64,000 nt of DNA from Chloroflexota bacterium (GTDB taxonomy: Bacteria > Chloroflexota > Dehalococcoidia > SZUA-161). The notes under the pieces were generated by a model that made no database searches, had not been told where the DNA came from, and saw only the letters and a list, made by a program, of their open reading frames with translations. The translations under genes and the position numbers were made by a program. The stretch lies in the NCBI GenBank assembly GCA_021787935.1, contig JAJYLC010000001.1, positions 4,598 through 68,597 on the forward strand, in the 5' to 3' direction. Below, piece after piece: positions 6,556 through 63,788 of the stretch. Every line of letters begins with the position of its first letter. The first letter of the stretch is position 1.

Positions 6556-6954
6556 CTAATTACGGGCAACCGATTTTATTAACTCAATGAGATAATTTGT
6601 GTCTGTGCCAGCACCAAAGACCTCTTTAATGCCCTGTTTCTTTAGCCAGTCGATATCCTCATCAGGGATCAATCCTCCAACCAGAACCATTACATTCCCC
6701 AAACCCTTTTCTTTGAGCAAACGCATCACCACAGGGACATGGTCATCGTAAGCACCTGTTGAGAAACTCATGCCAATAACACTGGCATCCTCTTGCACGG
6801 CCGAAGTGGCTACTTCTTCAGGCCGCATGTATACTATATAAACTACTTCAAAGCCTGCGTCTCTCAAAATCGTGGCGACACTCTTCACTCCTCTATCATG
6901 GCACTCCATCCAATGCTTGACTAAAAGTACTTTAGTTCTGCCTTGGGATTTCAA
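6556..6954 (-). CDS. acyl-CoA mutase B12-binding small subunit (second copy)
   Basis: 132 aa; B12-binding domain with ExHxxG variant (ECHDRG); homologous to CDS 4396-4803. Confidence 0.8.
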   Translation of the reverse strand: MKSQGRTKVLLVKHWMECHDRGVKSVATILRDAGFEVVYIVYMRPEEVATSAVQEDASVIGMSFSTGAYDDHVPVVMRLLKEKGLGNVMVLVGGLIPDEDIDWLKKQGIKEVFGAGTDTNYLIELIKSVARN

Positions 6955-18282: not shown

Positions 18283-18354
18283 GGCGACGTAGCCAAGTGG
18301 TAAGGCGGGGGTCTGCAAAACCCCTATTCAGCGGTTCGAATCCGCTCGTCGCCT
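18283..18354 (+). tRNA. tRNA-Cys (anticodon GCA)
   Basis: Acceptor GGCGACG/CGTCGCC; 3-bp D-stem typical of tRNA-Cys; anticodon stem GGGGT/ACCCC with loop CTGCAAA; T-arm AGCGG-TTCGAAT-CCGCT; no encoded CCA. Confidence 0.85.
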
Positions 18355-18356
18355 CT
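18313..18356 (+). repeat. 44-bp direct repeat copy 1 (3' half of tRNA-Cys from the anticodon loop to 2 nt past the gene; putative attL)
   Basis: ctgcaaaacccctattcagcggttcgaatccgctcgtcgcctct is identical to 22750-22793. Confidence 0.8.
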
Positions 18357-18730
18357 CACATAAGGCCCATCTTACCCAGTATCCCTTTGACATGTGTGAA
18401 GATAGACACATCTTCTTTCATATCCCACCAGATAAACTTGTCAAGCTCGTGTCCTATGAGGCGTGGTTGACCTCGTGCTTCGACCAAGCAGACTTTATGA
18501 AGGCTGGCATAACCTTTGAAGTCGCAATCTCGCAACCGCGTTATTTTGGTTGGACTCAATCCCAGTTCCTCAAACAACTCCCTGCCAGCGGCACTTGCAG
18601 CAGGTTCATTCTCTTTTATTCCCCCGCCGGGCAACGAGAAGCGACGCCTACCTCTGTCTCGAACAAGCAGAACCTTGCTATCTCTTATTACGACTGCAGT
18701 ACCCCGTTGGCGTAGGTGGCGATTATTCAT
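18356..18730 (-). CDS. NUDIX hydrolase
   Basis: 124 aa; Nudix box GGGIKENEPAASAAGRELFEELGL (GX5EX7REUXEEXGU pattern). Confidence 0.7.
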   Translation of the reverse strand: MNNRHLRQRGTAVVIRDSKVLLVRDRGRRRFSLPGGGIKENEPAASAAGRELFEELGLSPTKITRLRDCDFKGYASLHKVCLVEARGQPRLIGHELDKFIWWDMKEDVSIFTHVKGILGKMGLM

Positions 18731-18801
18731 ATGGGCACCTTGCGTTTGTTGCGGTATCCTACAGCAATATGTACCAACATTTGAGTTTATCCATAGAGGT
18801 T

Positions 18802-20073
18802 TTAGTTATTCCAGTTTCCGTCCCAAGTCGTATAAACATTGGTGACTGTTCCTAAGCTGTCCCATGTGCTGTCCCACCCCACTTCTGGGAATAAACTGTG
18901 GGGGATATACTGTTGCCCCACTTGGACATTGACTGTTTTTACACATCTTGTGGGGCCTGGTGAGTTAGTATCATCCACATAGACCAAACCCATATCGGTT
19001 GTTTGGAATGCGTCAAGGGCATGTCCACCAGTGTACCCAGACAAGTCGATTGAGACATAGGCACATCTGATTCCCGCCATCTCGGCGTCATTGTGAAGCC
19101 TTTCGGCAAAATCAGCACACACTTGAGGAGGGCTAGGCTGCTCTGTGCCATCAATAATACCTTGAATACGAGTCAGGTCAACATAGCTCTCAGCGGAACC
19201 GTAATATGACCCTGGTACCGACAGGCTGTAAGTGTATGGAAACTGGTCCGTTCTATCTTGTTGCAGGAAGCTCACCATCTGAGCATAGGTCGGATTGACA
19301 GCGTCCTTATTATTGATGAGCACGATGAAATGGCCGCTGTCATCGTAGCAACCATTACCAGAAAGCGTTCCTTCTGGTGTGTCTACCAGTCCTAGGTAGT
19401 AATTCTTGTATATGCCTGTTCGGCTGTTTATGCCTGCGCGTGTCTGACTTGGCGCTGGCGCAGTGGCTCTGGTTCCAGTCGAACTCGGGATGGGATTTGC
19501 CGACGACGATTGTTCTCCTTGGGAATTTCCGCCCTTATGGAACCATTCTACGACTGCATTCTTGGCTTCGTATAATGGACTCACCTTGGCGTAAGCTGCG
19601 ACTGAACATCCTATCAGGGCTACAAGGATCAGGGAGACGAATATGGTACCGTATCTTCTGACTTTATACTTTCGCACATCGCTAAACGTAATGATATCCC
19701 ATAGAGCAACAATCCCAGCTGCTGTCATAATTCCTATGACGACTGGTCGTGCAAGCTCAGGAATGTGATAGTACGTATATGCAATAATTCCTATAGCCGA
19801 AGCTGTTAGCAAGAGCAATATTAAAGATTGACTCCAACGGGACTGTCTCCGAGAGCGTAACTTACCCAGTGCAGAATTGATAGGCTTACTACGATGCTGA
19901 TGTACATGACCCGCTCCATAACTGGGTGTGGGAAAACTGTATTCACACCGGCCACACCGCCAAGAGCGATAGTGCCTATTATAGTAGACCTTAGTGCTTC
20001 CGCATCGTGGACATAATGGTGCGCCCCTTGATTCCTTCTGGGCTGCCCAATATTCGTCTTCTCTCTTAGGCAT
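18802..20073 (-). CDS. zinc-ribbon / 3-TM / transglutaminase-like cysteine-protease-domain membrane protein
   Basis: 423 aa. N-terminal CPRCG…CGRC ribbon and three hydrophobic helices. C-terminal VCADFA…AGIR…GHALDAF…VDDT matches the transglutaminase-like core (C…H…D with the GxCxxFA-like motif). Paralogous to CDS 20096-21643. Confidence 0.6.
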   Translation of the reverse strand: MPKREDEYWAAQKESRGAPLCPRCGSTKVYYNRHYRSWRCGRCEYSFPTPSYGAGHVHQHRSKPINSALGKLRSRRQSRWSQSLILLLLTASAIGIIAYTYYHIPELARPVVIGIMTAAGIVALWDIITFSDVRKYKVRRYGTIFVSLILVALIGCSVAAYAKVSPLYEAKNAVVEWFHKGGNSQGEQSSSANPIPSSTGTRATAPAPSQTRAGINSRTGIYKNYYLGLVDTPEGTLSGNGCYDDSGHFIVLINNKDAVNPTYAQMVSFLQQDRTDQFPYTYSLSVPGSYYGSAESYVDLTRIQGIIDGTEQPSPPQVCADFAERLHNDAEMAGIRCAYVSIDLSGYTGGHALDAFQTTDMGLVYVDDTNSPGPTRCVKTVNVQVGQQYIPHSLFPEVGWDSTWDSLGTVTNVYTTWDGNWNN

Positions 20074-20095
20074 AGGGTAACCACTTATTATTGTA

Positions 20096-21643
20096 TTACC
20101 AGTATATCTCCACAGTACTAACGATACCCAACGGCAAAACGGTCCAGTCTGTGGGCAAAATGAATTGAGGCGTATATTCTGTGCCTGGCTTCACTGACAC
20201 GGTTGTGTCGTTGTTTGAAGGTCCTGCCTGTCCTGGTGGTATTCCAGTGCAATCTATATATTTCAATCCTTCGTCTGTTGTAACGAAGGCATCCAGAGCA
20301 TGACCAATGGTCTGCCCTTGGAAAGTGACAAAGACGAATGCTGTCCTGATTCCCGCTGCCTCCGCATGGTCGTAGACATCCCTGGCGAAGTCAGCGCATG
20401 TGTACGTTGGCATGATGTATGGGTTGCTGTCTGTCTTATCCGCAAGTATGAAGCTTTCAAGTTGTGCCCAAGTTGGGTTCTGCGCCGCGGAATTCCTCGT
20501 CAGGGTTACAGATACGCCCGCCGCGTCAGTGACTGCGGGTTGTATCCCGGAGTATACCGTGATTCCCGTATCCTGATAGAGTTTGAGTTGTGTTTGAAGC
20601 TGATTGACTGTATTCTGCAAGGAAGTTATTTGGCTGTTTAGGCCGCTAATCTCTGATTTGGTGTTGTTCAAATCGGCTGTGGTTGTGCTCAGCTTGCCTT
20701 GTACTGTGACTAGCTCATTCTCCTTTGCCTGCACCTTGCTGTGGGAACTTTCAGAAACCCAAAACACGCTGACTAAGACCAGTAGAATTATAATGAAAGG
20801 GAATGCAATAGTTGCATAGCGAATTCTGAGATTACCGAATTTCAACAAGCCAATCATAGCAGCAGCGCTCCAGATTGCGGCGATTGAGGCGACTAAGATT
20901 AACCCAATAGCGGCATATCCAAGCCCGCTAAACTGAAAAGTTGCATAACCTATGAGTGCCAGGCACGCGAAGATTAGAATCAAGTAACGCGCATTTCTAC
21001 GAACAGCACTTACGTTCCTAAGTCTACCTGGGGCAACCATCATATTGCATAAAGAATTGAGGCATTCATAGCCAGATGTATTAGGGTTCCAATAGAGTGT
21101 ACCTTGCCCACAACCCGGACATATCTTCATTATTTGCCTTACAAAATGCCTCGGCTGTTCAAGTTGCACTTCAGGCGGCCGCTGTTGTTGTACTGCTATC
21201 TCACCCACTTCACTCTTTTGAAAATTACGTTTACACGCCGGATTGAAACACTCATGTAGTTTGACGAAGTGGTTCCAGTACAGCGACTTTTCACTGCAGG
21301 CAGGACACTGCCGCATCTCTGGCTCGTTGCGCTGGCTACCTAATTGCCTTTCGCGCAAAGCCATTTGTTCGCACCGGCAAGTGTCACACTCATATTTATA
21401 ATACTTGTGGTGCTTATAGCAGTATTTCACGCTATCACCAAAGGCACTGGCATATTCTTCTCGTGGTGCTCGCCCTTCCTCGGTTCTGTTCTCTTTCCAT
21501 ATGGGGCTCTGTTTGCACTTCGGATTTGTGCATTCTTTGGCCCTAGTGAATGGATTCCAGAAGAGGGACATTTCCCCACAGGCAGGGCACCGTTGAAACG
21601 CTGGGGTGTCCATCTGGCTATGCGAAGATTCGTCCTCTTTCAT
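20096..21643 (-). CDS. multi-zinc-ribbon / TM / coiled-coil / transglutaminase-like domain membrane protein
   Basis: 515 aa. Three CPxCG…C ribbons with the repeated module CPACSEKSLYWNHFVKLHECFNPACKRNF. Two hydrophobic stretches (~45 and ~21 aa) that could each hold one or two TM helices; the ~45-aa one is long enough for two. Q/N/L-rich coiled coil. C-terminal TCADFARD…AGIRTAFV…GHALDAFVTTDEGLKYIDCT (C-x31-H-x16-D). Confidence 0.6.
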   Translation of the reverse strand: MKEDESSHSQMDTPAFQRCPACGEMSLFWNPFTRAKECTNPKCKQSPIWKENRTEEGRAPREEYASAFGDSVKYCYKHHKYYKYECDTCRCEQMALRERQLGSQRNEPEMRQCPACSEKSLYWNHFVKLHECFNPACKRNFQKSEVGEIAVQQQRPPEVQLEQPRHFVRQIMKICPGCGQGTLYWNPNTSGYECLNSLCNMMVAPGRLRNVSAVRRNARYLILIFACLALIGYATFQFSGLGYAAIGLILVASIAAIWSAAAMIGLLKFGNLRIRYATIAFPFIIILLVLVSVFWVSESSHSKVQAKENELVTVQGKLSTTTADLNNTKSEISGLNSQITSLQNTVNQLQTQLKLYQDTGITVYSGIQPAVTDAAGVSVTLTRNSAAQNPTWAQLESFILADKTDSNPYIMPTYTCADFARDVYDHAEAAGIRTAFVFVTFQGQTIGHALDAFVTTDEGLKYIDCTGIPPGQAGPSNNDTTVSVKPGTEYTPQFILPTDWTVLPLGIVSTVEIYW

Positions 21644-21714
21644 CAGCGTTACCTCCTCTAGCGGCTGCTTTTCTAACGGAAATTACTCGGCTAGCCTGCT
21701 GATAATAAATTCAC

Positions 21715-22446
21715 CTACTTGGGTAAGTTGCCTACTTGCTTTGAGTCATTGTCAGGCGGAAGCTGTTGCCCTATTCTTGCAGCTAATTCGCTTCTCGTAA
21801 AATTGAGTCTGCACCTTGGGTTAAAGCATTCATATACTTTTGTAAAATGATTCCATTGTAGCGATGGTTTTTCACAAACGGGGCATTGTCGCAGATCCCT
21901 GGCTTTCTGCACCTTATCCGCAGACTCTTGACGCAGAGTCTGTTGTTCCAGGCGGCATTTATCACACTCAGTGTTGTAGTATGTCTTATGCTTGTAGCAG
22001 TACATGGGTGTCTCTACCTGGGCAGCCCTTGGTCGCTCCTCTGACCTTTGAGGTCGGCTAGTAGATAAGTTTGTGAAGTTGGTAGCTATGAAAGTTGGTG
22101 AAGTCGATTTCGCCATGAGCTTGCGGCTGAGGTATCGGTTGGGAGAAACATACCTTACACGGTACTTGCCAAGCGGAATAATGGGTATGAATATCAGGCA
22201 GAAGTACTTGGTCTGTACGATAGAGGAACATACGGGGCAGCGTAACCCTCCACCGTATAACCTTGTTCCGATTCCGTTGAGGGTTGTGGTTGAGCCTGCG
22301 CTCTCAGCAGTGGTAGCATCTGCACATTTTTGGCAGAATCCGGGAAAATGCCGGAAGTTTTGACATTCCTTGGAACAATAGACACCGAGTTCATCCCGGG
22401 GGCCCCAGACAACGCGAGATCCGCAATTGCTACATTTTTCAAACAT
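21715..22446 (-). CDS. multi-zinc-ribbon protein (paralog of the N-terminal regions of 20096-21643; no TM or TGase-like domain)
   Basis: 243 aa. Modules YCYKHKTYYNTECDKCRLEQQ and CPVCEKPSLQWNHFTKVYECFNPRCRLNF are near-identical in pattern to YCYKHHKYYKYECDTCRCEQ / CPACSEKSLYWNHFVKLHECFNPACKRNF in the neighbouring protein. Confidence 0.5.
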   Translation of the reverse strand: MFEKCSNCGSRVVWGPRDELGVYCSKECQNFRHFPGFCQKCADATTAESAGSTTTLNGIGTRLYGGGLRCPVCSSIVQTKYFCLIFIPIIPLGKYRVRYVSPNRYLSRKLMAKSTSPTFIATNFTNLSTSRPQRSEERPRAAQVETPMYCYKHKTYYNTECDKCRLEQQTLRQESADKVQKARDLRQCPVCEKPSLQWNHFTKVYECFNPRCRLNFTRSELAARIGQQLPPDNDSKQVGNLPK

Positions 22447-22749
22447 GCTCAGACCTCCCTCAAGGATGCATCACTTGAGACATTCTACAGCGACATGGCA
22501 TAGAGTGCAAGATGACTCGCTATGACTTACTGTATCTGCTTATCACCCATCTTCTTGCACCCTGACTTCGTCAAGCGCCTGGCTGCCCCATACAAGCTCA
22601 GGCCAACGGAGATGCTGGGTAGGAACCTCTGAGGCCTGGTTACAGCTAACGGACAGCTAACCGTTTCAGCGGTTGCAAGCGGTGTTTTGCGGTTGTCAGA
22701 GGTGTGTTTTAGCTTCGGGTATGCCTGCAGGCGAGTGTGAAACGCGTTA

Positions 22750-22793
22750 CTGCAAAACCCCTATTCAGCGGTTCGAATCCGCTCGTCGCCTCT
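22750..22793 (+). repeat. 44-bp direct repeat copy 2 (partial tRNA-Cys 3' half; putative attR)
   Basis: Identical to 18313-18356. Not preceded by the 5' half of a tRNA, so it is not a complete gene. Confidence 0.8.
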
Positions 22794-50775: not shown

Positions 50776-50801
50776 GGGGAGTGCAGAGGGGCGAAGCCCC
50801 T
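50776..50801. repeat. GC-rich hairpin motif copy A (GGGGAGTGCAGAGGGGC-GAA-GCCCCT)
   Basis: 25-nt motif with AGGGGC/GCCCCT stem. Recurs at 52219-52244 with 3 substitutions and a different loop. Confidence 0.5.
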
Positions 50802-51346: not shown

Positions 51347-52186
51347 GTGGATTTTGTCAAATTTCAAGCCACAGGCAATGACTTCATATTGATAGACAGC
51401 CGCCGGATAAAGCGGCGAGAGTGGCCGGTGCTGGCTAAAGCCATGTGTCACCGTAATTTCGGCGTGGGCGCCGATGGAATTCTGCTGATTTCGCCTTCCA
51501 AGGTAGCTGACTTCTACATGCGCATGTTCAACCCTGACGGCTCCGAGGCGGAGGCCTGCGGCAATGGGCTGAGGTGTGCTGCCAGGTACGCTAAGGAAAA
51601 CGGATTATCGAGTGGCGCTGATATCAGGATAGAGACCGCAGCCGGTATGAAGATAGCGAGAATCAAGGGTGACAACAGCATTCAGGTAGCCATGGGCAAA
51701 CCCGAATTAAAGCCGTCCGCAATTCCTGTCATTGTGAATAGAAAAGGCGTCACCGAGGCTTCGCCTGTGATAGATTACCCGTTGACCATCGATAGAACGA
51801 AGCTAAAAATCACCTGCATCGCTATGGGCAATCCGCACGCTGTATGTTTCCTGGAGCAGCCGGTCGCTGGTTTTCCCCTGGCTGAAGTTGGCCCCAAAGT
51901 GGAGCGCCATTCCATGTTTCCCAACAGGGTGAATTTCGAGATAGTGAACGTTATCAGCCGAAAAAAGCTCGGAGCACGGGTATGGGAGCGTGGGGCAGGA
52001 GAGACGCTCTCCTGTGGCACCGGCGCATGCGCTATAGCAGTGGCGGCCCGACTCAAAAAGCTTACCGATAACCCGGTCGATATAATATTGCCAGGCGGTA
52101 CACTGGCTGTAGACTGGGGTGGCAAGGGAGAGGTGCTGCTCAGCGGGCCTGCCGAGGTGGTGTTCGAGGGAAAATGGAAAGACTAG
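51347..52186 (+). CDS. dapF: diaminopimelate epimerase
   Basis: 279 aa; MDFVKFQATGNDFILID…; catalytic Cys motifs (GNGLRC; SCGTGACA). Confidence 0.9.
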   Translation: MDFVKFQATGNDFILIDSRRIKRREWPVLAKAMCHRNFGVGADGILLISPSKVADFYMRMFNPDGSEAEACGNGLRCAARYAKENGLSSGADIRIETAAGMKIARIKGDNSIQVAMGKPELKPSAIPVIVNRKGVTEASPVIDYPLTIDRTKLKITCIAMGNPHAVCFLEQPVAGFPLAEVGPKVERHSMFPNRVNFEIVNVISRKKLGARVWERGAGETLSCGTGACAIAVAARLKKLTDNPVDIILPGGTLAVDWGGKGEVLLSGPAEVVFEGKWKD

Positions 52187-52218: not shown

Positions 52219-52244
52219 AGGGGTGTGCAGAGGGGCATAGCCCC
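52219..52244. repeat. GC-rich hairpin motif copy B (GGGGTGTGCAGAGGGGC-ATA-GCCCCT)
   Basis: See copy A at 50776-50801. Both lie in the short spacer just upstream of a plus-strand gene start. Confidence 0.5.
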
Positions 52245-52314
52245 TAGCATATTGAAGCCCCCCTTTTCTAAAGGGGGCAAGGGGGATTAGGTAGCCCCTA
52301 ATAGGAGGGAAACA

Positions 52315-53055
52315 ATGAGTTTCGTCATAGCTGTCTACGTTCCTGAAGGCATCGTCATGGCTTCGGACAGCCGCCAGTCGGTGACCATCGAGGGTAAGAA
52401 CCCCGAAGGCAATCCCTTCAAAGTTGAAACCGTCAACTCCGACGCTGTAATAAAAACATATCTCCTGGAGAAACAGCAAATTGGCGTCTCTAGCTTCGGC
52501 CAGGATTTACTCGGCGGCATACCTACAGCCAGTCACATCAAGAGATTTATCGAGGAGGAGTTGAAAGCTAGCGACGATGTGACGACCGTCCCTAAGAAGC
52601 TGGTCGAATATCTACGTAAGTCATTTCCCAATGCTGACGCCGGTTTCCATATTGCCGGCTACAGGAAAGAGGGCAAAAGCAGCATACCATATGTCTATTC
52701 CTGCCATATTGCCAAGAACGAGGTTGGGCGGAGAAACACCAAGCCCGACGGTTCGCTGGCTTATGGTGCCACCTGGTCAGGCCAGGGCGACATCCTCAGT
52801 TCTATCCTCATCCCTGTAACAATCAAGGACGAAAAAGGCAACGATAAGGTCATTCGTTCCCCTGCGCCCATTATCTGGGACGCTATGTCGCTTCAGGATG
52901 CCATAGATTTCGCCATCTACGCCATCCGAACCACTATCGACACTATGCGTTTTCAGGCGCGTCCCAAAAACGTCGGCGGCCCCATAGACGTCCTTGTTCT
53001 CACACCCGATGAGACCAAGTGGATTCAAAGAAAGGAACTTCGCGGCAGCACCTGA
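52315..53055 (+). CDS. proteasome beta-subunit-like Ntn-hydrolase (Anbu/BPH-like) with Ser at position 2
   Basis: 246 aa; N-terminal MSFVIAVYVPEGIVMASDSRQS parallels proteasome/HslV (T)TIVAV…GVVLAADSR. Stand-alone, with no PAN/ARC-type ATPase neighbour. Confidence 0.5.
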   Translation: MSFVIAVYVPEGIVMASDSRQSVTIEGKNPEGNPFKVETVNSDAVIKTYLLEKQQIGVSSFGQDLLGGIPTASHIKRFIEEELKASDDVTTVPKKLVEYLRKSFPNADAGFHIAGYRKEGKSSIPYVYSCHIAKNEVGRRNTKPDGSLAYGATWSGQGDILSSILIPVTIKDEKGNDKVIRSPAPIIWDAMSLQDAIDFAIYAIRTTIDTMRFQARPKNVGGPIDVLVLTPDETKWIQRKELRGST

Positions 53056-53266
53056 TATTGAAAATAACTGAAACGCGTTCATGCTTCGACAAGCTCAGCA
53101 CGAACGCGCCAGAAAGTAGGCTCAAGTCTCAATTCATAGATTGACTGGATAAGGCAGTAGATATTATGACAAAACAACTCCTGATTATATCTAGGGACAC
53201 TTCTGAGGGAACTTAATGACTTTTTAGGCAAAGCCCAAAAGATGAGAAGGGGGTGAATACTGAGTT

Positions 53267-53959
53267 ATGTACGGAGGAGAACAGAATGATCTTAAATATT
53301 GGCGCAAAATATTCTTTGTCGAGATTGGTGTTGGTTTACCATATCCATCGCAAGAAGAGCGCTGGAAGAAATATGGGGAACCATTGGGAAGAATCTTCTC
53401 AATGTTTTTTGAGCCTACTACTCTATTCACTTGGTTCAAGGATAAGAAATCTCAATCTATACTAGAGGGAGTGAATGCTACTTGCCTACAATCTAGATTT
53501 AGATGGAGAGAATCTCAAAATGACCTGGTGGATTTGGGATTACTTGCAATTCTAACTAGTAAAGTCAATGAATTATTTACTGGATTAGGAGCACCTTGGG
53601 CATTTGTAACGGGGGTGTTTACTCATCCAGACCCTACAAATGAGGTGTTTGCAACTCTTTCACAGACTAGTATTCCAGTAACACTTGACTCACTCATCAG
53701 TGATTATCCCCTATATCTTGTTCTACAATCTGAACCACGACAAATCTTTGCCTTCTACATCGGTGGTACAACATTATGCAGAAGACTATACCCGTTCCCA
53801 GAGCAGCAAGTGCCAGAACTAATAGCAAAGGCCAAAGAAATTCATATTTTAGATGGATTTCCCTCTCTAGAGTTCGGGCAAAAAGAAAACCCAATCGTGA
53901 CTGTTCTTTCCCAAGAGATAGGTTATGAACAGGCTAAAAAGATTCTAGAAAAGAAGTAG
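53267..53959 (+). CDS. hypothetical protein (ORFan in AT-rich segment)
   Basis: 230-aa ORF in a region of visibly lower GC (53.06-54.2 kb); no recognisable motifs. Confidence 0.4.
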   Translation: MYGGEQNDLKYWRKIFFVEIGVGLPYPSQEERWKKYGEPLGRIFSMFFEPTTLFTWFKDKKSQSILEGVNATCLQSRFRWRESQNDLVDLGLLAILTSKVNELFTGLGAPWAFVTGVFTHPDPTNEVFATLSQTSIPVTLDSLISDYPLYLVLQSEPRQIFAFYIGGTTLCRRLYPFPEQQVPELIAKAKEIHILDGFPSLEFGQKENPIVTVLSQEIGYEQAKKILEKK

Positions 53960-54215
53960 AATTATTTTGAGGCGGGAAATAGATAGTCTTTCGACTTTTG
54001 GAGCAGAAAGATCAGTTGCTCCAAAAATAGGTCAAAATTAGGACCTTTGGAACAAAGCTCTAAAGGGGGAGTTGCTTGACCAAGGTGTACGATAATTGCT
54101 CAAAGGTCAAGTTGGCAATTAGAAGCGGCGTCGCCACTCCTGTGGCAACGAATTTCTCGTCGTGACAGGAGTCACGACGCTACAAAACTAGAGATAAGAG
54201 AGGATTTAACAGCAC

Positions 54216-55388
54216 ATGCAACTAGCCAACCGCATCGACAAATTGCCACCGTATCTCTTTGTTCAGATCAGCAAAAAGATCGCCGAAAAGAAGGCCCAGG
54301 GAATAGACGTGGTCAGCTTCGGCATCGGCGACCCCGACATCCCCACCCCTCCCCATATCATCAAGCGCCTGTGCCAGGCTGCTAAAGACCCGGCAAACCA
54401 CCGTTACCCCGAGACCGAGGGGCTACCCCAGTTGAGGCAAGCCATCGTCGAATGGTACGAACGCCGCTTCAACCTGTCCTTCGACCCCAATAAAGAGGTG
54501 CTGCCTCTCATCGGCTCCAAGGAAGGTATCGGACATATCGCACTGTGCTTCATCGACCCCGGAGATATTGCCCTTGTCCCCGACCCCGGATACCCCGTCT
54601 ATTCTATAGGAACTATGTTCGCCGGCGGTGAGAGCTACTTTATGTCTCTCACTGAGAACAACAATTTCCTGCCTGACCTGGGCAGCATCCCTCCCAGGAT
54701 AGCCAAAAAGGCCAGGCTGATGTGGATAAACTACCCCAACAACCCCACCGGGGCTGTAGCCGACCTCCGTTTCTTCGAGAAGGTGGTGGCCTTCGCTAAA
54801 AAGTACGATATAGCAGTCTGCCACGATGGCCCTTACTCGGAGGTCGCCTTCGATGGCTACCGTCCGGTGAGCTTCCTCCAGGCACGCGGAGCAAGAGATA
54901 TAGGAGTGGAGTTTCATTCGCTCTCCAAGAGCTATAATATGACTGGGTGGCGGATAGGCATGGTAGTAGGCAATGAAAAGATAGTCAACGCCCTCATGCG
55001 GGTAAAGTCGAATCTCGATTCGGGGATTCCCCAGGCTATCCAGTATGCCGCCATCGAGGCCCTGCTGGGGAAGCAGGACTGTATCGCCGAGCATAACGCT
55101 ATTTATCAGCGCAGGCGCGACCTTGTAGTGAAGACGCTCAACAAGATAGGTCTCAAGGTAAAGCCGCCCAAAGCTAGCCTCTACATCTGGGCTAAAGTCC
55201 CTGATGGATATACCTCACTTGATTTCTGCGCCAGGCTGCTGGAAGAGGCCTCGGTGGTAGTCACCCCAGGCACCGGCTATGGCAAATGCGGGGAGGGCTA
55301 TGTCCGCCTGTCTTTAACCACTCCAGATTATAGAGTCAAGGAAGGGCTCGCCAGGCTAGAGAAATGGGCTGGCAAACACACTCTATAA
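54216..55388 (+). CDS. dapL: LL-diaminopimelate aminotransferase (class I aminotransferase)
   Basis: 390 aa; N-terminal [36 protein letters not shown] typical of DapL; PLP-lysine region [14 protein letters not shown]. Confidence 0.75.
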
Positions 55389-58113: not shown

Positions 58114-58770
58114 CTATTCAGGGCGTTCCTTTTTTATCTTCTTGGCAATCTGAGCGATCTGTTTACTTTCCTCCAGCAGCGAATACACGCTCGTGTCACT
58201 CAGCTCTTTAGATAGAGTACTGGTTGTTTCCAAGGTAAGCTCCTCGCTTCTGAATATGTCCAGCACACTTTCAATTTTCTCATCCCCTGGAGGGCTATCT
58301 GCGGATGGCTTATCAGCCGCTTCAATCTTCTGGCTGCCCGACTCAAGTACCGGGGGCACCACTTCAGTTCCCGATGGAACTCCACTTGCCTCACCTTCAA
58401 CCTGACTGACTTCCTCCTTTTCACTATCGTGAAGCATGGTTACAGGAGTCTCTACCTTTGAATCAGGGTGAATCGGGTTTTCCAACTGGCCCCCCGCTGT
58501 CTGAACTGCTGCTTCAACTTTTTCTGCGCCGACCACACGCTCGTTGTTAGCCTCGATAGGCGGGGCGACACCTTGCGATGGCACACTGGCTGCATTGGGT
58601 GCATCGCTCACTTCATCCTCAGACTGATTGGTTGCCAGCTTCTTGCTCTCAAGGAATTCCCCTACCGGATCATGTTCCAGAGGAAGCTCCCCTTCATCCC
58701 CTTTGACCGACCCCGTAAGGGGACTTAATGGTCGTTTCACTACTGACTGAATCCATTGGATGATGTTCAT
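58114..58770 (-). CDS. acidic low-complexity protein (hypothetical, last gene of fla-like operon)
   Basis: 218 aa, rich in E/D/S/P/V with a predicted disordered middle. Immediately downstream of the flaJ-like gene on the same strand. Confidence 0.4.
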   Translation of the reverse strand: MNIIQWIQSVVKRPLSPLTGSVKGDEGELPLEHDPVGEFLESKKLATNQSEDEVSDAPNAASVPSQGVAPPIEANNERVVGAEKVEAAVQTAGGQLENPIHPDSKVETPVTMLHDSEKEEVSQVEGEASGVPSGTEVVPPVLESGSQKIEAADKPSADSPPGDEKIESVLDIFRSEELTLETTSTLSKELSDTSVYSLLEESKQIAQIAKKIKKERPE

Positions 58771-58790
58771 AAATGTCCTCCCCAGATCGA

Positions 58791-60305
58791 CTAAGACATC
58801 TTGGGTATCGAAGAGAATATCTTCTCTGCCATTATGGGCACAAAAACCAGCATTGCGCCTGATACGCCCAGAGTCACCGCAAGGTAGTTGTAAAGTTTAT
58901 ACTTGTTGCCGCCATCAGCCGCCTTGATAGCGAAGGCGTTGGCACCGGCCAGAGCTAAAATGACTGGTACCACCAGAGTGCCCAGCATGTGAACGTTCTT
59001 GAAGCTGAAACTGAATATTTGAACTGTGCTCATGGGAGCACTTGCCACCGCTTGGTTATAAACCCCCTCCACTGTTTTGGAAAAGATATTAATCACCTGT
59101 GTCACGAACAACAGCAGAGCCACAAGGGCAACGTGCATGCCCAGCACCAGTATCACGAATGAAGACGATACCTGCGCCCTCTTGGCACGAAGGAAGTCCA
59201 GGCTCATCGCTATTATAGAAGAACGATTCCCCACCTCCTCAGGATCGCCTCCCAGCCTGGTGGCATCGTTAAACATCTTCACGCTTCGGTATATCGTTTC
59301 ACTGCCTGTCTCCAGAGAAAAACGCTGCCAGCAGAGCTCCGGCTTAAGTCTGGAAATCAACCTGGAGCGAAGGCGTTTCACATCGTTAGCCAAGTTTGCT
59401 GTCGATCTCAGGTCTAACCTATCCAGAGCGTTGGACACGGTAACCCCAATCGCCGATGCCACGTTCCCCAGCGACCTGAGAAAAGTGCTGATGTCAGAAT
59501 CTTTCTTGGTCACCTGCCGGTCGAAAATTGTGCCTGCTATACCTATAGGAAGCAGCAGCGCACCTGCTACCATTAGCGCCCACCCCAGACCAACGCCTGC
59601 CATCATAAATACAGCAAAAGCTGCTATGGAAACCGGAATCAATATCCTGGCTAAATGTTGAGCGCGACTGTGGGCGGCGCAATTCAAGACTTGAGGGTGT
59701 ACCCTGATCTCTTTAGGCGATACCCTATATATTGCCCAAGCCCCCAGTATTGAAATAACGATGGTAACTCCTACTAGCGACACTGCGATCCAGGTTGCCA
59801 CGGGGTATATAAGCATGGAGATAGCAGCTACCATAACAATCAGGGCAGCAGACACGATGAGAGCCCCATATGCTTCCGTCCACTTTTTCAGCGATTCCAC
59901 CCCGCGCTCGTATTCATTCTTAAAGGCTTCTGCCTGAATCTGCGCTTCCTGAGCCAGGAATTCTGACTCAGGCTCTCCCGAACCCAGCGAACTGGAAAGG
60001 CGCAATAGCAGGCCTTTAACCGACTCCTCCTTGGCCGATTCTCCGACGATGCGGCAAGCCACGGCATAGTCATATCGCATCTTCTTTGCCAGAAGATGAA
60101 TCTCAGCAAAATAATGCGATGAGGCGCAGGGGAGTTGAGAGGCGAACTCGAATATCTGACTGCGCGGTATCCCTGCTGCAGCAATAGATGACATATACGC
60201 CAGTTGGTAAAACAGGTCGTAACTCAGGTAATCGCTGTTACCACTGCTTTTATTGTTAGAAAAGTCTTTCTTGCTGCGCTCTGGCAAGAACTTTGAGAAG
60301 TTCAT
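58791..60305 (-). CDS. flaJ: archaellum/type IV pilus assembly membrane protein (FlaJ/TadC, GspF-like)
   Basis: 504 aa polytopic membrane protein with a cytoplasmic N-domain. Size and position after the FlaI-like ATPase match FlaJ; 50-nt overlap with the upstream gene. Confidence 0.6.
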   Translation of the reverse strand: MNFSKFLPERSKKDFSNNKSSGNSDYLSYDLFYQLAYMSSIAAAGIPRSQIFEFASQLPCASSHYFAEIHLLAKKMRYDYAVACRIVGESAKEESVKGLLLRLSSSLGSGEPESEFLAQEAQIQAEAFKNEYERGVESLKKWTEAYGALIVSAALIVMVAAISMLIYPVATWIAVSLVGVTIVISILGAWAIYRVSPKEIRVHPQVLNCAAHSRAQHLARILIPVSIAAFAVFMMAGVGLGWALMVAGALLLPIGIAGTIFDRQVTKKDSDISTFLRSLGNVASAIGVTVSNALDRLDLRSTANLANDVKRLRSRLISRLKPELCWQRFSLETGSETIYRSVKMFNDATRLGGDPEEVGNRSSIIAMSLDFLRAKRAQVSSSFVILVLGMHVALVALLLFVTQVINIFSKTVEGVYNQAVASAPMSTVQIFSFSFKNVHMLGTLVVPVILALAGANAFAIKAADGGNKYKLYNYLAVTLGVSGAMLVFVPIMAEKIFSSIPKMS

Positions 60306-62013
60306 AGAAGTCGCGCACTCCCTTTTCTTTATGTAGTTTTTCCAGAATCCTCGCCCTCCGCTCCACTAAGGAGTATATCTGCATCTTCTTGTCGGGGGGG
60401 ATGCCACGCTTTAGGGCAATCTTGTCCTCGAGGAGGTAGCTATTTCTTTTGCCCACAAAATCAAAGGTATCGGTCACCGGGCTCCAACGAAATACCTCTA
60501 CATAGGAGAAGGTATTTGTAACCGGGTCATAGCCGACTATCTCGCTGATGCTTGTGGCGCGGCGCCCTATTTTCCCGCTGGGCAGTTTTACCGCATTCTG
60601 ACAGACTACAACGTTCAAGTTATCTATATAGGTCTTGGGTACGTTGATCGGATTCCCCGTGAGACGTTGAATTAACTTCTCCACATTAGCTGCGTGGAAA
60701 GTGCTCATCACTTCATGGCCTGTCTGCATCGCTCCAAAGGCAATGTTCCCTTCCTCTCCTCTGATTTCACCCACGATTATTACATTAGGACGCTGTCTCA
60801 AGGCAGCCTTCAACAGGTCAAACATACTTACGCTGGCCCCTTTGTCTCCCTGTCCCGGTGCTCGAGATACCTCTCGAAGCCAGTTGGCATGGGGCACCTG
60901 AAGCTCGGGGGTATCTTCGATGCTCACTATTTTGTGGCTCATCGGGATGAAGGTAGTTACAGCGTTGAGCAATGTAGTCTTGCCTGATGCTGTTTCGCCG
61001 ACGACAAACAGATTCATGCCATCTTCTATCACCACAGAAAGGTAGGCTGCCATTTCGTAGCTCACGCTTCCAAACTCGATAAGCTCAATGATACTGAGCG
61101 GAGTCTCACTGAACTTTCTGATGGTGAAATTGCTGCCGCGTCGCGAGACCTCCCTGCCAAAGACTATGTTTATGCGTGACCCATCCGGCAAGGTGGCATC
61201 TACTATCGGATTGCGCAATGTTACAGGCCTCTTTATCTGCTCGGAAAGGCGCAGCACGAAATCGTCCAGGTCCTCATGAGTTTCGAAGGTTATGGCCGAT
61301 TTAACGCCCTTGAAAATCTTGTGCTCCAGAAATATGGCCCCCAGCCCGCTGCAACTGATGTCCTCTATATATGTATCCTTAATCATCACGTCAATGATGC
61401 CCATTCCCACCTTGTCTCGGACGATAAGGTACTTCAGGGCTTCGAGTTGTTCTGGAGTGACCTGCACCTTAGCTTTAGTAGCAACCTTGCTCCCGTTGCC
61501 ACCATTGCCCTTGCCATCTTTAGTATTAGAAGAAGGTGCAGCAGAGCTGCTTCGGTGCACTATACACACGACATCAATCAGTTTCAGGATGGCTTCTTTT
61601 CTCTCCGCCTCGGACTCCGCCTGGCTCATTCCACCGGCTACATCGACCAGTTTGCCCTCCACCGCTGGCAATACCTGGCTTATCTCCTGAGTTAGACTTG
61701 GCTCTATCGGGATATAAACAGGCCTGCTGCTGCCGGGCTCGGAATAAACATGAACATAGATATTGTCCGATACCCGATAAATGAGGTTTTTTTGCGGCAG
61801 GTCGCCCTGTGCCCGCGTGATCTTGGTATAGTATTCCGGCACGCCGATCTCACTGACAGGAATCATGCGCAGGTAGTCCAGAAGATGCTTATCCTGCTTA
61901 CAAGCCTCCTGCAGCTCCTCGGGCAGCAACTGCAAGAGGTCTCCCTCAGACATGCTGTTCTGGGGAGACCCTGCCTCGCCCTGTCCGCTAAAGGGCAAAA
62001 TTATCTTGGGCAT
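60256..62013 (-). CDS. flaI: archaellum/type IV pilus assembly ATPase (FlaI / VirB11-TadA superfamily)
   Basis: 585 aa; Walker A GETASGKTT, T2SS-E family motifs (…SIEDTPEL…), long N-terminal domain typical of FlaI. Confidence 0.7.
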   Translation of the reverse strand: MPKIILPFSGQGEAGSPQNSMSEGDLLQLLPEELQEACKQDKHLLDYLRMIPVSEIGVPEYYTKITRAQGDLPQKNLIYRVSDNIYVHVYSEPGSSRPVYIPIEPSLTQEISQVLPAVEGKLVDVAGGMSQAESEAERKEAILKLIDVVCIVHRSSSAAPSSNTKDGKGNGGNGSKVATKAKVQVTPEQLEALKYLIVRDKVGMGIIDVMIKDTYIEDISCSGLGAIFLEHKIFKGVKSAITFETHEDLDDFVLRLSEQIKRPVTLRNPIVDATLPDGSRINIVFGREVSRRGSNFTIRKFSETPLSIIELIEFGSVSYEMAAYLSVVIEDGMNLFVVGETASGKTTLLNAVTTFIPMSHKIVSIEDTPELQVPHANWLREVSRAPGQGDKGASVSMFDLLKAALRQRPNVIIVGEIRGEEGNIAFGAMQTGHEVMSTFHAANVEKLIQRLTGNPINVPKTYIDNLNVVVCQNAVKLPSGKIGRRATSISEIVGYDPVTNTFSYVEVFRWSPVTDTFDFVGKRNSYLLEDKIALKRGIPPDKKMQIYSLVERRARILEKLHKEKGVRDFYELLKVLARAQQERLF

Positions 62014-62021
62014 AGCAACCC

Positions 62022-62750
62022 CTAAGCCTTGGCCTTAGAATATGGTATCACTCTGATACCCCAGTTAGGTTCGACATCAAAAGAGATGATATTGCCTGTG
62101 TTGAGGTCGGCGCCCCGCACCTTGGCCACTTCCAGAATTTTTATCATCTTGCTTCCCATGGTTTCTATACGCAATCTCAAGTGAGCGTCACACATCGACC
62201 CCAGCCTGACCATGGCGGTTTCATCGAAGGCATACGAGTGCGCTACGCAGACAATACCCATCCCCTTGGCGGAAAGCCTCTTACAGTCTTCGAAGAAGGA
62301 TAGCACTTCCTCCATGGAAGCATGGGTCACGTAGTAGGTAATGGAATCGATTATCGCCATATCGACGCCCTTATTGGCATAACTTTCGAGCATGGGCAAT
62401 AGACCTGTGCCCAGGCTGCGCCTCGTTTTCTTGGTGTCTATAGGGTAGACCCACAATCGGGAAAGCAGGAGATAGTCCATGATATCCAAATTCAAGCTCT
62501 GCATCTGACTCACCAGACTCTTCACCGTGTTCTCGGTGGTAAAGACCACAGCACTGCACCCCTTTTTCAGAGAGCCCCAGACCATTTGCTGGGTGAGCAC
62601 CGATTTGCCTGAATCGGGCTGGCCCTCAACAAGGCTGAGCGACCTTAGCGGTATCCCGCCGCCTATCTTCTTGTCCAACTCATCATTCCCTGTGGAGATT
62701 ATTCTAGGATCATTCTCCGAACCTGTCCTCATTGGAATCCTCCTAACCAC
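62022..62750 (-). CDS. flaH: KaiC/RecA-like ATPase, FlaH-like
   Basis: 242 aa; ISTGNDELDKKIGGGIPLRSLSLVEGQPDSGKSVL is a close match to the FlaH N-terminus; KaiC-like fold. Confidence 0.7.
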   Translation of the reverse strand: MVRRIPMRTGSENDPRIISTGNDELDKKIGGGIPLRSLSLVEGQPDSGKSVLTQQMVWGSLKKGCSAVVFTTENTVKSLVSQMQSLNLDIMDYLLLSRLWVYPIDTKKTRRSLGTGLLPMLESYANKGVDMAIIDSITYYVTHASMEEVLSFFEDCKRLSAKGMGIVCVAHSYAFDETAMVRLGSMCDAHLRLRIETMGSKMIKILEVAKVRGADLNTGNIISFDVEPNWGIRVIPYSKAKA

Positions 62751-63276
62751 TAAATTGTGCTGAAGTCGCCACTCCGTTGTCGGTGGATACAGTCACGAAG
62801 TTAGTAGTACCCATACCTGGCAGCGGAGCAAGGCTCAACCTCATTAACATCACCTCACCCGGGTCCAGTATGCCGGGCTCGAAAATCTCTTTTTGTGTCA
62901 GACTCGCGTCTGTATATATGCCAACGATAGTCCACTGGCCACTAGCTGGGCTTGGGTTTTCAGTATACGTTAGATCGCTGATATGATAGCCATTGCTCGC
63001 ATCATAGTACTGCACCAGCACATCCCACTTATCAAATTGGGCCAGGTGCACCTCACCGCTATTAAGAACAGATATTTGAACAAAGCCCCCTTGCATTTGG
63101 GCACCGACAATCTTGATATCAGTCCTCGACACATCCTGTGTTACCTGTGTCGTCTGCTTCAAAGCTTGAGAGACAGAGTCAAATGAAGTGTAAGCGGTCT
63201 GTGACCAGGTCAAAACCGCCGTCAGCATTAACGCTATAACAACCAGTGCCACAATTGCATTGCTCATAGTAATCAC
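62743..63276 (-). CDS. FlaF-like protein (N-terminal TM helix + beta-rich domain)
   Basis: 177 aa; single N-terminal hydrophobic helix then a beta-rich domain. Position (G-F-H-I-J order) as in archaeal fla operons. Confidence 0.4.
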   Translation of the reverse strand: MITMSNAIVALVVIALMLTAVLTWSQTAYTSFDSVSQALKQTTQVTQDVSRTDIKIVGAQMQGGFVQISVLNSGEVHLAQFDKWDVLVQYYDASNGYHISDLTYTENPSPASGQWTIVGIYTDASLTQKEIFEPGILDPGEVMLMRLSLAPLPGMGTTNFVTVSTDNGVATSAQFSG

Positions 63277-63788
63277 ATACTGAAATCGTATTCATCAGAC
63301 ACACCATTAGGGATCATGACCTTGACATTGTATAGTCCTGACGGAAGAGGACTGTTATAGCTTATCTCAATCATCAAGGTATTTGCTATGCCCCATTCAG
63401 TGCTATTACCCAACACATAGCTCCAGCGTGGAAATGTGCTCCCTGCGTAATCAACGTAGGGTATCCACGTCCAGATAGTGTTGTTGCCAGCCAGAAAGAC
63501 ATCACAATGTTTAATGTCATCCACAGGTACCGTGCCTATATTCTTTACCCACACAAACACATCGAAGTAGCCATTGGAATTCGTATCCTGCCAGTTTCCA
63601 TTCTTATCCAGCTCACCGGTAGCATTGATAATCTTGATCTGGCTTTTTATACGTTCGTTCATACTGGCAGAAACGCTGCTCAGTGCCCCGCTGGAACTAG
63701 TAATAGCCGGATATACAGCGTTGATTACCAGAACAACACATACCACTGCTGCAACCACCAATAATATGGTGCTTAGCACTTTATCCAT
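63273..63788 (-). CDS. FlaG-like protein (N-terminal TM helix + beta-rich domain)
   Basis: 171 aa; MDKVLSTILLVVAAVVCVVLV helix then beta-rich domain. GAAGGAG RBS upstream of the ATG at 63788. Confidence 0.4.
   Translation of the reverse strand: MDKVLSTILLVVAAVVCVVLVINAVYPAITSSSGALSSVSASMNERIKSQIKIINATGELDKNGNWQDTNSNGYFDVFVWVKNIGTVPVDDIKHCDVFLAGNNTIWTWIPYVDYAGSTFPRWSYVLGNSTEWGIANTLMIEISYNSPLPSGLYNVKVMIPNGVSDEYDFSM

Follow-up and report, generated by a model that had tools for sequence, protein, structure and literature searches.

The gene described here encodes a proteasome-like Ntn hydrolase that is probably an active, ATPase-independent peptidase with an N-terminal serine and a non-canonical assembly, useful by itself in the genome that contributed the window (the whole 64,000-nucleotide stretch of DNA that was analysed) and serving, in sister genomes, as the obligatory upstream partner of a HEPN gene. 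The family to which it belongs is very large (more than 1300 clusters at 50% identity), is entirely uncharacterised, and mostly has serine where 20S subunits strictly have threonine; it is constrained like core metabolic genes, yet is also found on phages and mobile islands. To our knowledge, no function has been established for proteasome homologs beyond 20S, HslV and Connectase. What is new is the near-obligate HEPN pairing in the sister genomes, which provides a testable clue to the function of an orphan proteasome homolog.

A preliminary description made from the sequence had reported the reading frame and an N-terminus of MSFVIAVYVPEGIVMASDSRQS, both of which were recovered unchanged, and had placed dapF upstream, an AT-rich reading frame downstream and a GC-rich hairpin before the gene. 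These are likewise present, the hairpin proving to be two. The gene and its surroundings are laid out as follows.

51347..52186, + strand: dapF, the conserved neighbour 5' of the hydrolase gene (Pfam DAP_epimerase in syntenic loci)
52231..52277, + strand: two GC-rich hairpins in the spacer between dapF and the hydrolase gene (inverted repeats)
52231-52245: hairpin 1 of this spacer, AGGGGC-ATA-GCCCCT
52259-52277: hairpin 2 of this spacer, CCCCCTTT-TCT-AAAGGGGG
52303..52308, + strand: Shine-Dalgarno sequence AGGAGG, read from the sequence, 6 nt before the ATG
52315..53055, + strand: hydrolase coding sequence, 246 aa plus stop, ATG start
53056..54130, + strand: AT-rich inserted segment (GC 39-41%) with a 230-aa ORFan at 53267..53959
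54216..55388, + strand: aminotransferase class I/II, the conserved neighbour 3' of the hydrolase gene (Pfam Aminotran_1_2)

The start at 52315 is supported because the AGGAGG box precedes it and because about 130 full-length homologs open with Met-Ser or Met-Thr at the same position. The spacer hairpins do not form a canonical terminator, since no T-tract follows them; two copies of the AGGGGCNNNGCCCCT motif are present in the window, where 0.29 would be expected. Also upheld was the earlier statement that neither an HslU or ARC/PAN ATPase gene nor an alpha-subunit gene adjoins the hydrolase gene: the surrounding 8 kb or so contains no AAA+ or HslU-type gene (window reading frames, and Pfam annotation of the syntenic locus L001), none recurs beside the gene in about 90 related loci, in which surrounding genes were called and clustered, and no alpha-subunit gene is nearby. 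A hidden ATPase or unfoldase among the recurring neighbours was considered and rejected, all of these being unrelated housekeeping genes.

The relationship to the proteasome was reached by a diverse profile only, and single-sequence and shallow-profile searches failed to find it. Pfam PF00227 (Proteasome) scored 13.5 bits against the protein (E 0.058), below the gathering threshold of 22.4 bits, with the match falling on the C-terminal helix; there was no match in NCBIfam and no meaningful match in PHROGs, and nothing usable was returned from the PDB either by phmmer with the single protein or by hmmsearch with a profile of close relatives. A shallow alignment compared by hhalign with the T. 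acidophilum beta subunit and E. coli HslV gave weak matches. Homologs are nonetheless abundant, with 1941 at E<=1e-3 in a 90%-clustered database and 1336 clusters in a 50%-clustered library, and nearly all are 225-275 aa long, align from residue 1, are annotated as 'hypothetical' and carry no Pfam domain. A profile of 113 diverse relatives (the set used for all family residue counts given here) matches active 20S beta1 chains in the PDB with E-values from 1.2e-4 to 7e-4 and in a register that agrees with Thr1, and the proteasome-like N-terminus is therefore not a chance resemblance. The same profile matched T. acidophilum beta at 92.9% probability and E 3.8e-7 (hhalign), and the register of the hhalign alignments was later confirmed on PDB sequences. 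Individually, 19 of the 113 relatives match PF00227 at E<=0.01, weakly, and three give weak matches to the Connectase N-domain PF09894; the E-value of the profile against Anbu was only 0.43.

Structural prediction gave an alpha-beta-beta-alpha Ntn fold with proteasome topology. The fold searches used a first model with a pLDDT of 83.5, its four sibling models being at about 50, whereas in a second prediction, built on the 113 diverse relatives, pLDDT was 97.3 and pTM 0.92 for each of the five models, with secondary-structure elements in the same order as in the first. Comparison figures for the protein were 17.3 for designed Anbu (22% identity), about 16.5 for alpha subunits, 13.2 for HslV, 12.9 for BPH and 11.3 for Connectase, with other Ntn hydrolases at 11.7 (acid ceramidase) and 10.2 (penicillin acylase). 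Among viral structures, an uncultured siphovirus supplied the best match, a 'proteasome beta type-2 subunit' (TM 0.70/0.78). The proteasome-like Ntn hydrolase identity first proposed from the sequence is supported both by the profile matches to PDB beta1 chains and by this predicted topology, and placement of the protein in the proteasome (T1) branch of the Ntn hydrolases, as a distinct and uncharacterised variant, is likewise supported.

The residues that would form the active site were assigned from family conservation and from the alignments to proteasome subunits, and correspond to the following codons.

52318..52320, + strand: Ser2, the predicted N-terminal nucleophile (Ser1 after Met loss), from family composition and the Thr1 register
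52366..52374, + strand: Asp18-Ser19-Arg20, equivalent to proteasome Asp17-x-Arg19, from conservation and alignments
52453..52455, + strand: Lys47, the predicted general base (proteasome Lys33), Lys in 109/113 and aligned by hhalign
52498..52500, + strand: Gly62, the probable oxyanion-hole glycine (Gly47), Gly in 108/113, alignments ambiguous
52777..52782, + strand: Ser155-Gly156, possibly equivalent to Ser129-Gly130, at the end of the strand 151-156 and before helix H3

Position 4 of the profile pairs with residue 3 in the 196-aa mature chain of yeast beta1 and with residue 22 in its 215-aa precursor, and therefore position 2 corresponds to Thr1; the same register follows from the T. acidophilum beta alignment. 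That a serine directly follows the methionine at the nucleophile position, as the preliminary description had it, is borne out by this alignment and by the family, in which 93 of the 113 relatives have Ser at position 2, 18 have Thr and two have Ala (Ser or Thr in 111). Asp18 is found in 110 of them (Glu in the other three), Ser19 in all 113 and Arg20 in 110. Asp18 and Arg20 pair with Asp17 and Arg19 by both hhalign and HMMER, the triplet falling opposite ADSR in yeast beta1 and opposite T-E-R-R in the T. acidophilum subunit. The spacing from Lys47 to Gly62 is 14 residues in 93 of 113 relatives, the same as from Lys33 to Gly47, and Gly62 closes strand S4 (56-62) directly before helix H1, a position on which hhalign and HMMER differ. 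Since the HMMER local alignment is shifted around Lys33 and Gly47 relative to that of hhalign, the assignments of Lys47 and Gly62 are likely but fall short of proof.

The 20S 'second triad' residues (Ser129/Asp166; Huber 2016), which with Ser169 make up the proton-shuttle network, are not conserved across the family as a whole. Gly156 is invariant (113/113), and the preceding position, an invariant Ser among close relatives, is Asp in 36, Gly in 30, Ser in 13 and Asn in 12 of the 113; position 209 is an invariant Asp among close relatives and Asp or Glu in 74 of 113 family-wide. Ser155 and Asp209 are plausible equivalents of the second triad in the close relatives of the hydrolase. A catalytically dead scaffold, comparable to the proteasome alpha subunits, is scarcely credible in view of the conservation of S/T2, D18, S19, R20, K47 and G62, each present in at least 95% of the 113 relatives (the two with Ala2 being the only ones of their kind), and of the lack of any N-terminal extension over the nucleophile.

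The protein has no propeptide and begins with Met-Ser, and methionine aminopeptidase prefers small second residues. By analogy with Anbu, in which methionine aminopeptidase exposes the nucleophile (PMC5666114), this enzyme would remove Met1 and free the serine as the N-terminal nucleophile. Cleavage of peptide or amide bonds, with no dedicated ATPase, would then depend on Ser1 acting with Lys47 and Asp18, and probably with the backbone NH of Gly62, the counterpart of Gly47. In the 20S proteasome Thr1 is strictly conserved and a T1S mutant loses 40-45% of activity (Huber 2016); a Ser1 nucleophile has a precedent in the Connectase of M. jannaschii.

The predicted structure carries two extra hairpins, which are located at the following positions.

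52375..52440, + strand: long beta-hairpin, residues 21-42 (AF2 strands 21-28 and 34-42)
52810..52869, + strand: beta-hairpin inserted between H3 and H4, residues about 166-185 (AF2 strands 168-171 and 177-181)

Strands S1-S10 and helices H1-H4 are kept in the model (AF2 helices H1 71-81, H2 92-103, H3 159-165 and H4 193-211), and H5 is absent, with no helix beyond the strand at 234-238. The first hairpin, which lies between the equivalents of Asp17 and Lys33, is about 14 residues longer than its counterpart in 20S beta as judged by the hhalign gap, and the loop after H4 is also longer. An H3/H4 insertion has been described for PMI-2 to PMI-6, members of a group of orphan proteasome homologs, and it was argued by Fuchs et al. 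that such insertions could prevent double-ring stacking (PMC8665760). Given the two extra hairpins and the missing H5, the modelled protein probably assembles in a manner unlike the double-ring stacks of 20S, HslV and BPH.

Comparison with the named proteasome homologs excludes identity of the protein with HslV, Anbu, BPH, 20S subunits and Connectase. The 20S beta subunits (beta1/beta2/beta5) have a propeptide, a strict Thr1 and H5, and come with an alpha subunit, whereas the hydrolase has a serine and neither propeptide nor H5, carries the two extra hairpins, matches PF00227 below threshold and has no alpha gene near it. HslV and BPH are bacterial proteasome-like Ntn subunits that share the absence of H5, and BPH likewise has no ATPase partner; identity with HslV was rejected, as there is no adjacent hslU and the protein is not a compact subunit of about 175 aa. 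Anbu was rejected for want of the long C-terminal helix that Anbu dimer and complex assembly needs (PMC5666114), and none of the Anbu operon genes (transglutaminase, ATP-grasp, Alpha-E) was found among the neighbours examined. Connectase (MJ0548) is also a proteasome-like Ntn enzyme, ATPase-free and directed at one specific partner protein; it was rejected as an identity because H1 and H2 are present in the hydrolase, the S3/S4 helical insert is not, and PF09894 is matched only weakly and in three relatives.

[quoted passage not shown] Like the hydrolase, the PMI proteins have no propeptide, carry an H3/H4 insertion, share a Thr1/Ser1-Asp17-Lys33 core, probably with Gly47 as well, are similar to both alpha and beta subunits, lack an AAA+ partner, and are distributed patchily over bacteria, Euryarchaeota and phages (PMC8665760); the two are alike, too, in having no experimental characterisation. 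[quoted passage not shown] Cluster look-ups revealed no coincidence between the accessions of sampled family members and published PMI representatives (e.g., WP_137109689.1, HDY66466.1), and judged by the published description the hydrolase probably falls within or near the PMI group.

A Connectase-like mode of action is to be distinguished from Connectase identity. The hydrolase could be a sequence-specific processing enzyme or transpeptidase, probably a monomer or small oligomer and not a degradative compartment, and the absence of both an ATPase partner and H5, a hairpin at the H3/H4 site where insertion could prevent double-ring stacking (PMC8665760), the Ser1 of the M. jannaschii enzyme and the few weak PF09894 matches would all agree with this. 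In addition, the invariant, non-catalytic motif PD[NDE]P[KR]x[RK]PF of the HEPN partner loosely recalls the Asp-Pro recognition site of Connectase, which is offered as a lead only. We consider such an enzyme improbable, if not negligibly so; if the hydrolase turns out to be a specific peptidase or ligase that works without ATP, it might become a tool, as Connectase has been.

Genomic distribution and selection bear on whether the hydrolase is useful by itself. Relatives are present in at least 422 species-representative genomes, in a scan seeded with a tighter alignment than the most diverse one. Within Dehalococcoidia the order miaA-PNPOx-dapF-hydrolase-aminotransferase-hflX-galU holds while the identity of the hydrolase drops from 94% to 52%; dapF is at position -1 in 16 loci (18 in all), the aminotransferase is at +1 or +2 in 20, and in one locus (L004) dapF and the hydrolase gene overlap by 4 nt. 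The stable order and the overlap therefore indicate vertical inheritance of the gene between dapF and the aminotransferase in this class, and in the window it probably shares a transcript with dapF, the aminotransferase and hflX. Other arrangements include folD-ahcY-hydrolase in Caldiserica and acyl-CoA dehydrogenase-hydrolase-PBP2 in another Dehalococcoidia clade. Such neighbours might suggest a small-molecule amidohydrolase of diaminopimelate or cell-wall metabolism, given that in about 20 Dehalococcoidia loci dapF and a DapL-like aminotransferase gene tightly flank the hydrolase gene in the same direction, that it overlaps dapF in L004 and that PBP2 is directly 3' of it in the other clade, although we regard this as very improbable.

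Selection on the gene is strong. The dN/dS of the hydrolase against syntenic relatives is 0.035-0.056, with or without a HEPN gene, dS being near saturation for the more distant pairs; relative to locus L014, the hydrolase has a dN of 0.03 and its neighbours have higher values at similar dS (dapF 0.089, aminotransferase 0.059, hflX 0.054). The low dN/dS of the solo copy means that it is functional, and it is the most constrained gene of its neighbourhood. The solo hydrolase is thus under housekeeping-level constraint and useful on its own, and in the window's genome it would serve such a function by itself.

Beyond the Dehalococcoidia, copies with 60-75% identity to that of the window are found in Calditrichales, Saccharibacteria/Patescibacteria, Aminicenantes, Gammaproteobacteria, Bdellovibrionales, Cloacimonadota, Thermoplasmatales and Methanocellales, the last represented by one protein recorded under four MAG accessions. 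The island that carries the Methanocellales copy also contains a serine recombinase, an OLD-family nuclease, an RM system, cI/cro-like HTH genes, RepO and TraG. More distant members are located on phage contigs, between portal and large terminase genes, beside an endolysin and a tail gene, or beside capsid genes; tblastn of the hydrolase and a distant member against cultured plasmid and phage collections gave no match.

The HEPN association was revealed by clustering of neighbours. In six loci, drawn from four phyla, the gene directly 3' of the hydrolase gene and on its strand encodes a protein of 239-263 aa, and this cluster was identified as Cthe_2314-like HEPN (PF18730, 35.8 bits against a cutoff of 27.1). 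These proteins have an invariant R...H-E (Rx4H) motif, a second motif LAHE, and the invariant PD[NDE]P[KR]x[RK]PF segment mentioned above. In a reciprocal test, a metagenome scan seeded from the HEPN alignment alone yielded 65 loci, and the hydrolase gene is immediately 5' of the HEPN gene, on the same strand, in 61 of them, or 61 of the 63 that are informative, two having less than 35 nt of upstream sequence. The only HEPN genes without an upstream hydrolase are those of L101, in which HEPN is partial, and L110. The gap from the hydrolase stop to the HEPN ATG is most often 23 nt. Pairwise distances of the two proteins are correlated (r=0.80, Mantel p<=5e-4, 45 pairs), a correlation that could arise from linkage alone, and the HEPN protein diverges about 1.8 times faster than the hydrolase. 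Small reading frames downstream of the hydrolase in three further loci (L031, L034, L039) were suspected from their sequence to be PIN-like, an identity without Pfam support.

Seen from the hydrolase, the association is far from general, a HEPN gene being present in 7 of 80 species-genome loci. HEPN-linked and HEPN-less copies are interleaved in the crown of the hydrolase tree, including the clade of the window's copy, and the basal lineages (Caldiserica, Bacteroidales and phage copies) have no HEPN gene, the sampling of the two kinds in this tree being biased by mode of discovery. The slot between dapF and the aminotransferase itself holds 12 hydrolase-HEPN pairs, namely ten metagenomic loci together with L022 and L072, and in six HEPN-linked loci the hydrolase is 91-94% identical to that of the window; in the pairs of L129 and L136 this identity is 92-94%. 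No HEPN gene or remnant was found in the 64-kb window, and the link therefore says nothing direct about the window's copy; among IMG/VR viral contigs, the HEPN partner had no relative. In a 2013 survey of HEPN proteins the entry for Cthe_2314 gene associations was 'None detected', no link between HEPN proteins and proteasome homologs was found in the literature searched, and the hydrolase is the first reported partner of this HEPN family.

The sister pairs resemble known HEPN-toxin modules (e.g., the HEPN/MNT type VII toxin-antitoxin) in that the partner gene comes first in a tight bicistronic operon, that the second gene encodes a fast-evolving HEPN protein with an intact Rx4H, and that the contexts are mobile or defence islands. 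They differ in that the HEPN/MNT partner is a nucleotidyltransferase, whereas here it is a predicted proteasome-like peptidase; the window has no HEPN gene. The HEPN gene needs the hydrolase and the hydrolase does not need the HEPN gene, which fits a neutralising or regulatory function for the hydrolase. The strong constraint on solo copies and their stable synteny argue against this being all that it does. In the sister genomes the hydrolase gene is the upstream member of a two-gene operon with the Cthe_2314-like HEPN RNase, and the pairing suggests that control of a toxin-like RNase, by proteolysis or by binding, is one role of the family. A more specific proposal, less likely than not, is that the two genes constitute an unrecognised conflict module of toxin-antitoxin or abortive-infection type in which the hydrolase neutralises or activates an RNase toxin by proteolysis, with the solo copies domesticated or conferring immunity. 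If this is true, an orphan proteasome homolog would have a physiological role for the first time, and a new class of protease-type antitoxin or regulator would be defined.

It has also to be weighed whether the hydrolase is mainly the antitoxin-like or regulatory half of a toxin-antitoxin or abortive-infection module, so that the solo copy would be an anti-addiction orphan, retained for immunity to HEPN genes that arrive from elsewhere, and not a housekeeping enzyme. Antitoxin genes are usually upstream, as the hydrolase gene is. The asymmetry (61/63 against 7/80) is that expected of a toxin and its neutraliser, and the interleaving of linked and unlinked copies, the faster divergence of the HEPN protein, the spread of 60-75% identical copies over bacterial phyla and archaea, and the occurrence of copies beside RM systems, OLD nuclease, TraG, recombinase and NYN genes and on phages all point the same way. 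However, retention of a solo gene at one chromosomal slot through the deep divergence of Dehalococcoidia, to 52% identity, is unusual for an orphan antitoxin, the solo copy is more constrained than its housekeeping neighbours, and HEPN is absent from the basal lineages. Moreover, no PADLOC-DB v2 defence model matched the hydrolase, three of its homologs or two HEPN partners. On balance this account appears unlikely, and a peptidase useful by itself, which in sister genomes has a HEPN partner, is preferred.

The AT-rich segment that separates the hydrolase gene from the aminotransferase in the window has a different origin. Its ORFan is 39.5% GC, against 52-55% in the flanking genes, and the segment is absent from the syntenic loci L001, L004, L006 and L014. 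The ORFan has no Pfam domain, and identity with a Cthe_2314 HEPN was rejected by hmmsearch, as was the notion that it is a partner of the hydrolase in the 'HEPN slot', its family of 14 homologs standing alone in other operons and never beside a hydrolase gene. The segment is an independent insertion, unrelated to the hydrolase, and homologs of its ORFan are found inside fabD/fabG and purD/purE operons and near coaE.

Relatives of the proteasome-like Ntn hydrolase are carried on mobile elements and in phage genomes. In metagenome-assembled genomes (MAGs) of Methanocellales (loci L002 and L003, 1-12500), a copy 74% identical to the window protein is flanked by divergent cI-like and cro-like HTH genes, within an island that also holds a serine recombinase, an OLD-family AAA-TOPRIM nuclease, a type I/IIG RM system, RepO, Hjc and TraG. 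Because of this island context, and because four Methanocellales MAG accessions record the identical protein, the archaeal copies indicate a bacteria-to-archaea transfer by way of a mobile element. Family members were also found on real phage contigs, as follows.

L008, 5971-6714: family member with portal on one side and large terminase on the other
L010, 1414-2100: family member adjoining endolysin and minor tail protein genes
L007, 35-712: family member adjoining capsid genes, 56% identical to the window protein

An internally placed nucleophile is rare in the family, being seen in P0127, which has a signal peptide-like N-terminal extension of about 26 residues, and in P0253, a protein of 535 residues in which the hydrolase domain occupies residues 303-534. 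These two proteins, in contrast to other family members, would need to be cleaved before the Ser/Thr is exposed.

In some sister genomes the gene directly downstream encodes a Cthe_2314-like HEPN RNase. At other loci, with cross-phylum copies of the hydrolase, small ORFs on the same strand come next:

L031, 6732-7307, same strand as the hydrolase: ORF of 191 aa, overlapping the hydrolase gene by 4 nt
L034, 6770-7462, same strand: ORF of 230 aa
L039, 6844-7335, same strand: ORF of 163 aa
L044, 7063-7728: same-strand arrangement downstream of a further cross-phylum copy

No Pfam domain was found in the ORFs of L031, L034 and L039, and position +2 relative to the hydrolase at L044 is a NYN-domain protein. 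These arrangements hint that the hydrolase may also pair with non-HEPN effectors.

Several other features of the window were also noted.

53267-53959, within segment 53056-54130: AT-rich ORFan of 230 aa
53068-53106, just 3' of the hydrolase stop codon: element able to fold into a hairpin, roughly 35 nt long, CGCGTTC...GAACGCG
50787-50801 (after miaA) and 52231-52245 (after dapF): GC-rich hairpin AGGGGC-NNN-GCCCCT
58114-63788, minus strand: T2SS-F-like membrane protein, T2SS-E/PilB-type ATPase and KaiC/RecA-like ATPase
18283-18355: tRNA-Cys, final gene of a Trp-Leu-Gly-Cys tRNA cluster

The ORFan belongs to a small family (14 homologs, 49-100% identity) whose members in other genomes are each inserted alone into differing housekeeping operons (fabD-ORFan-fabG, purD-ORFan-purE, and near coaE); its behaviour is that of a single mobile gene. 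The CGCGTTC...GAACGCG element is a small dispersed repeat, occurring also in related genomes, inverted, at unrelated intergenic sites (L004, 5055-5085; L015 and L016, ~6770-6808; L020, 391-421). The AGGGGC-NNN-GCCCCT hairpin occupies two spacers, both intergenic, within one gene string (2 observed versus 0.29 by chance), with no T-tract following either copy. The T2SS-like cluster, present also in the downstream region of syntenic relatives, is unrelated to the hydrolase. Finally, the 3' 44 nt of tRNA-Cys (18313-18356) are repeated exactly at 22750-22793, and the ~4.4 kb between the repeats contains three minus-strand ORFs (422, 514 and 242 aa), with no clear Pfam domain in any of them and no integrase within the interval; the region 18283-22793 has the appearance of an integrated element, or of what is left of one, bounded by att-like repeats.
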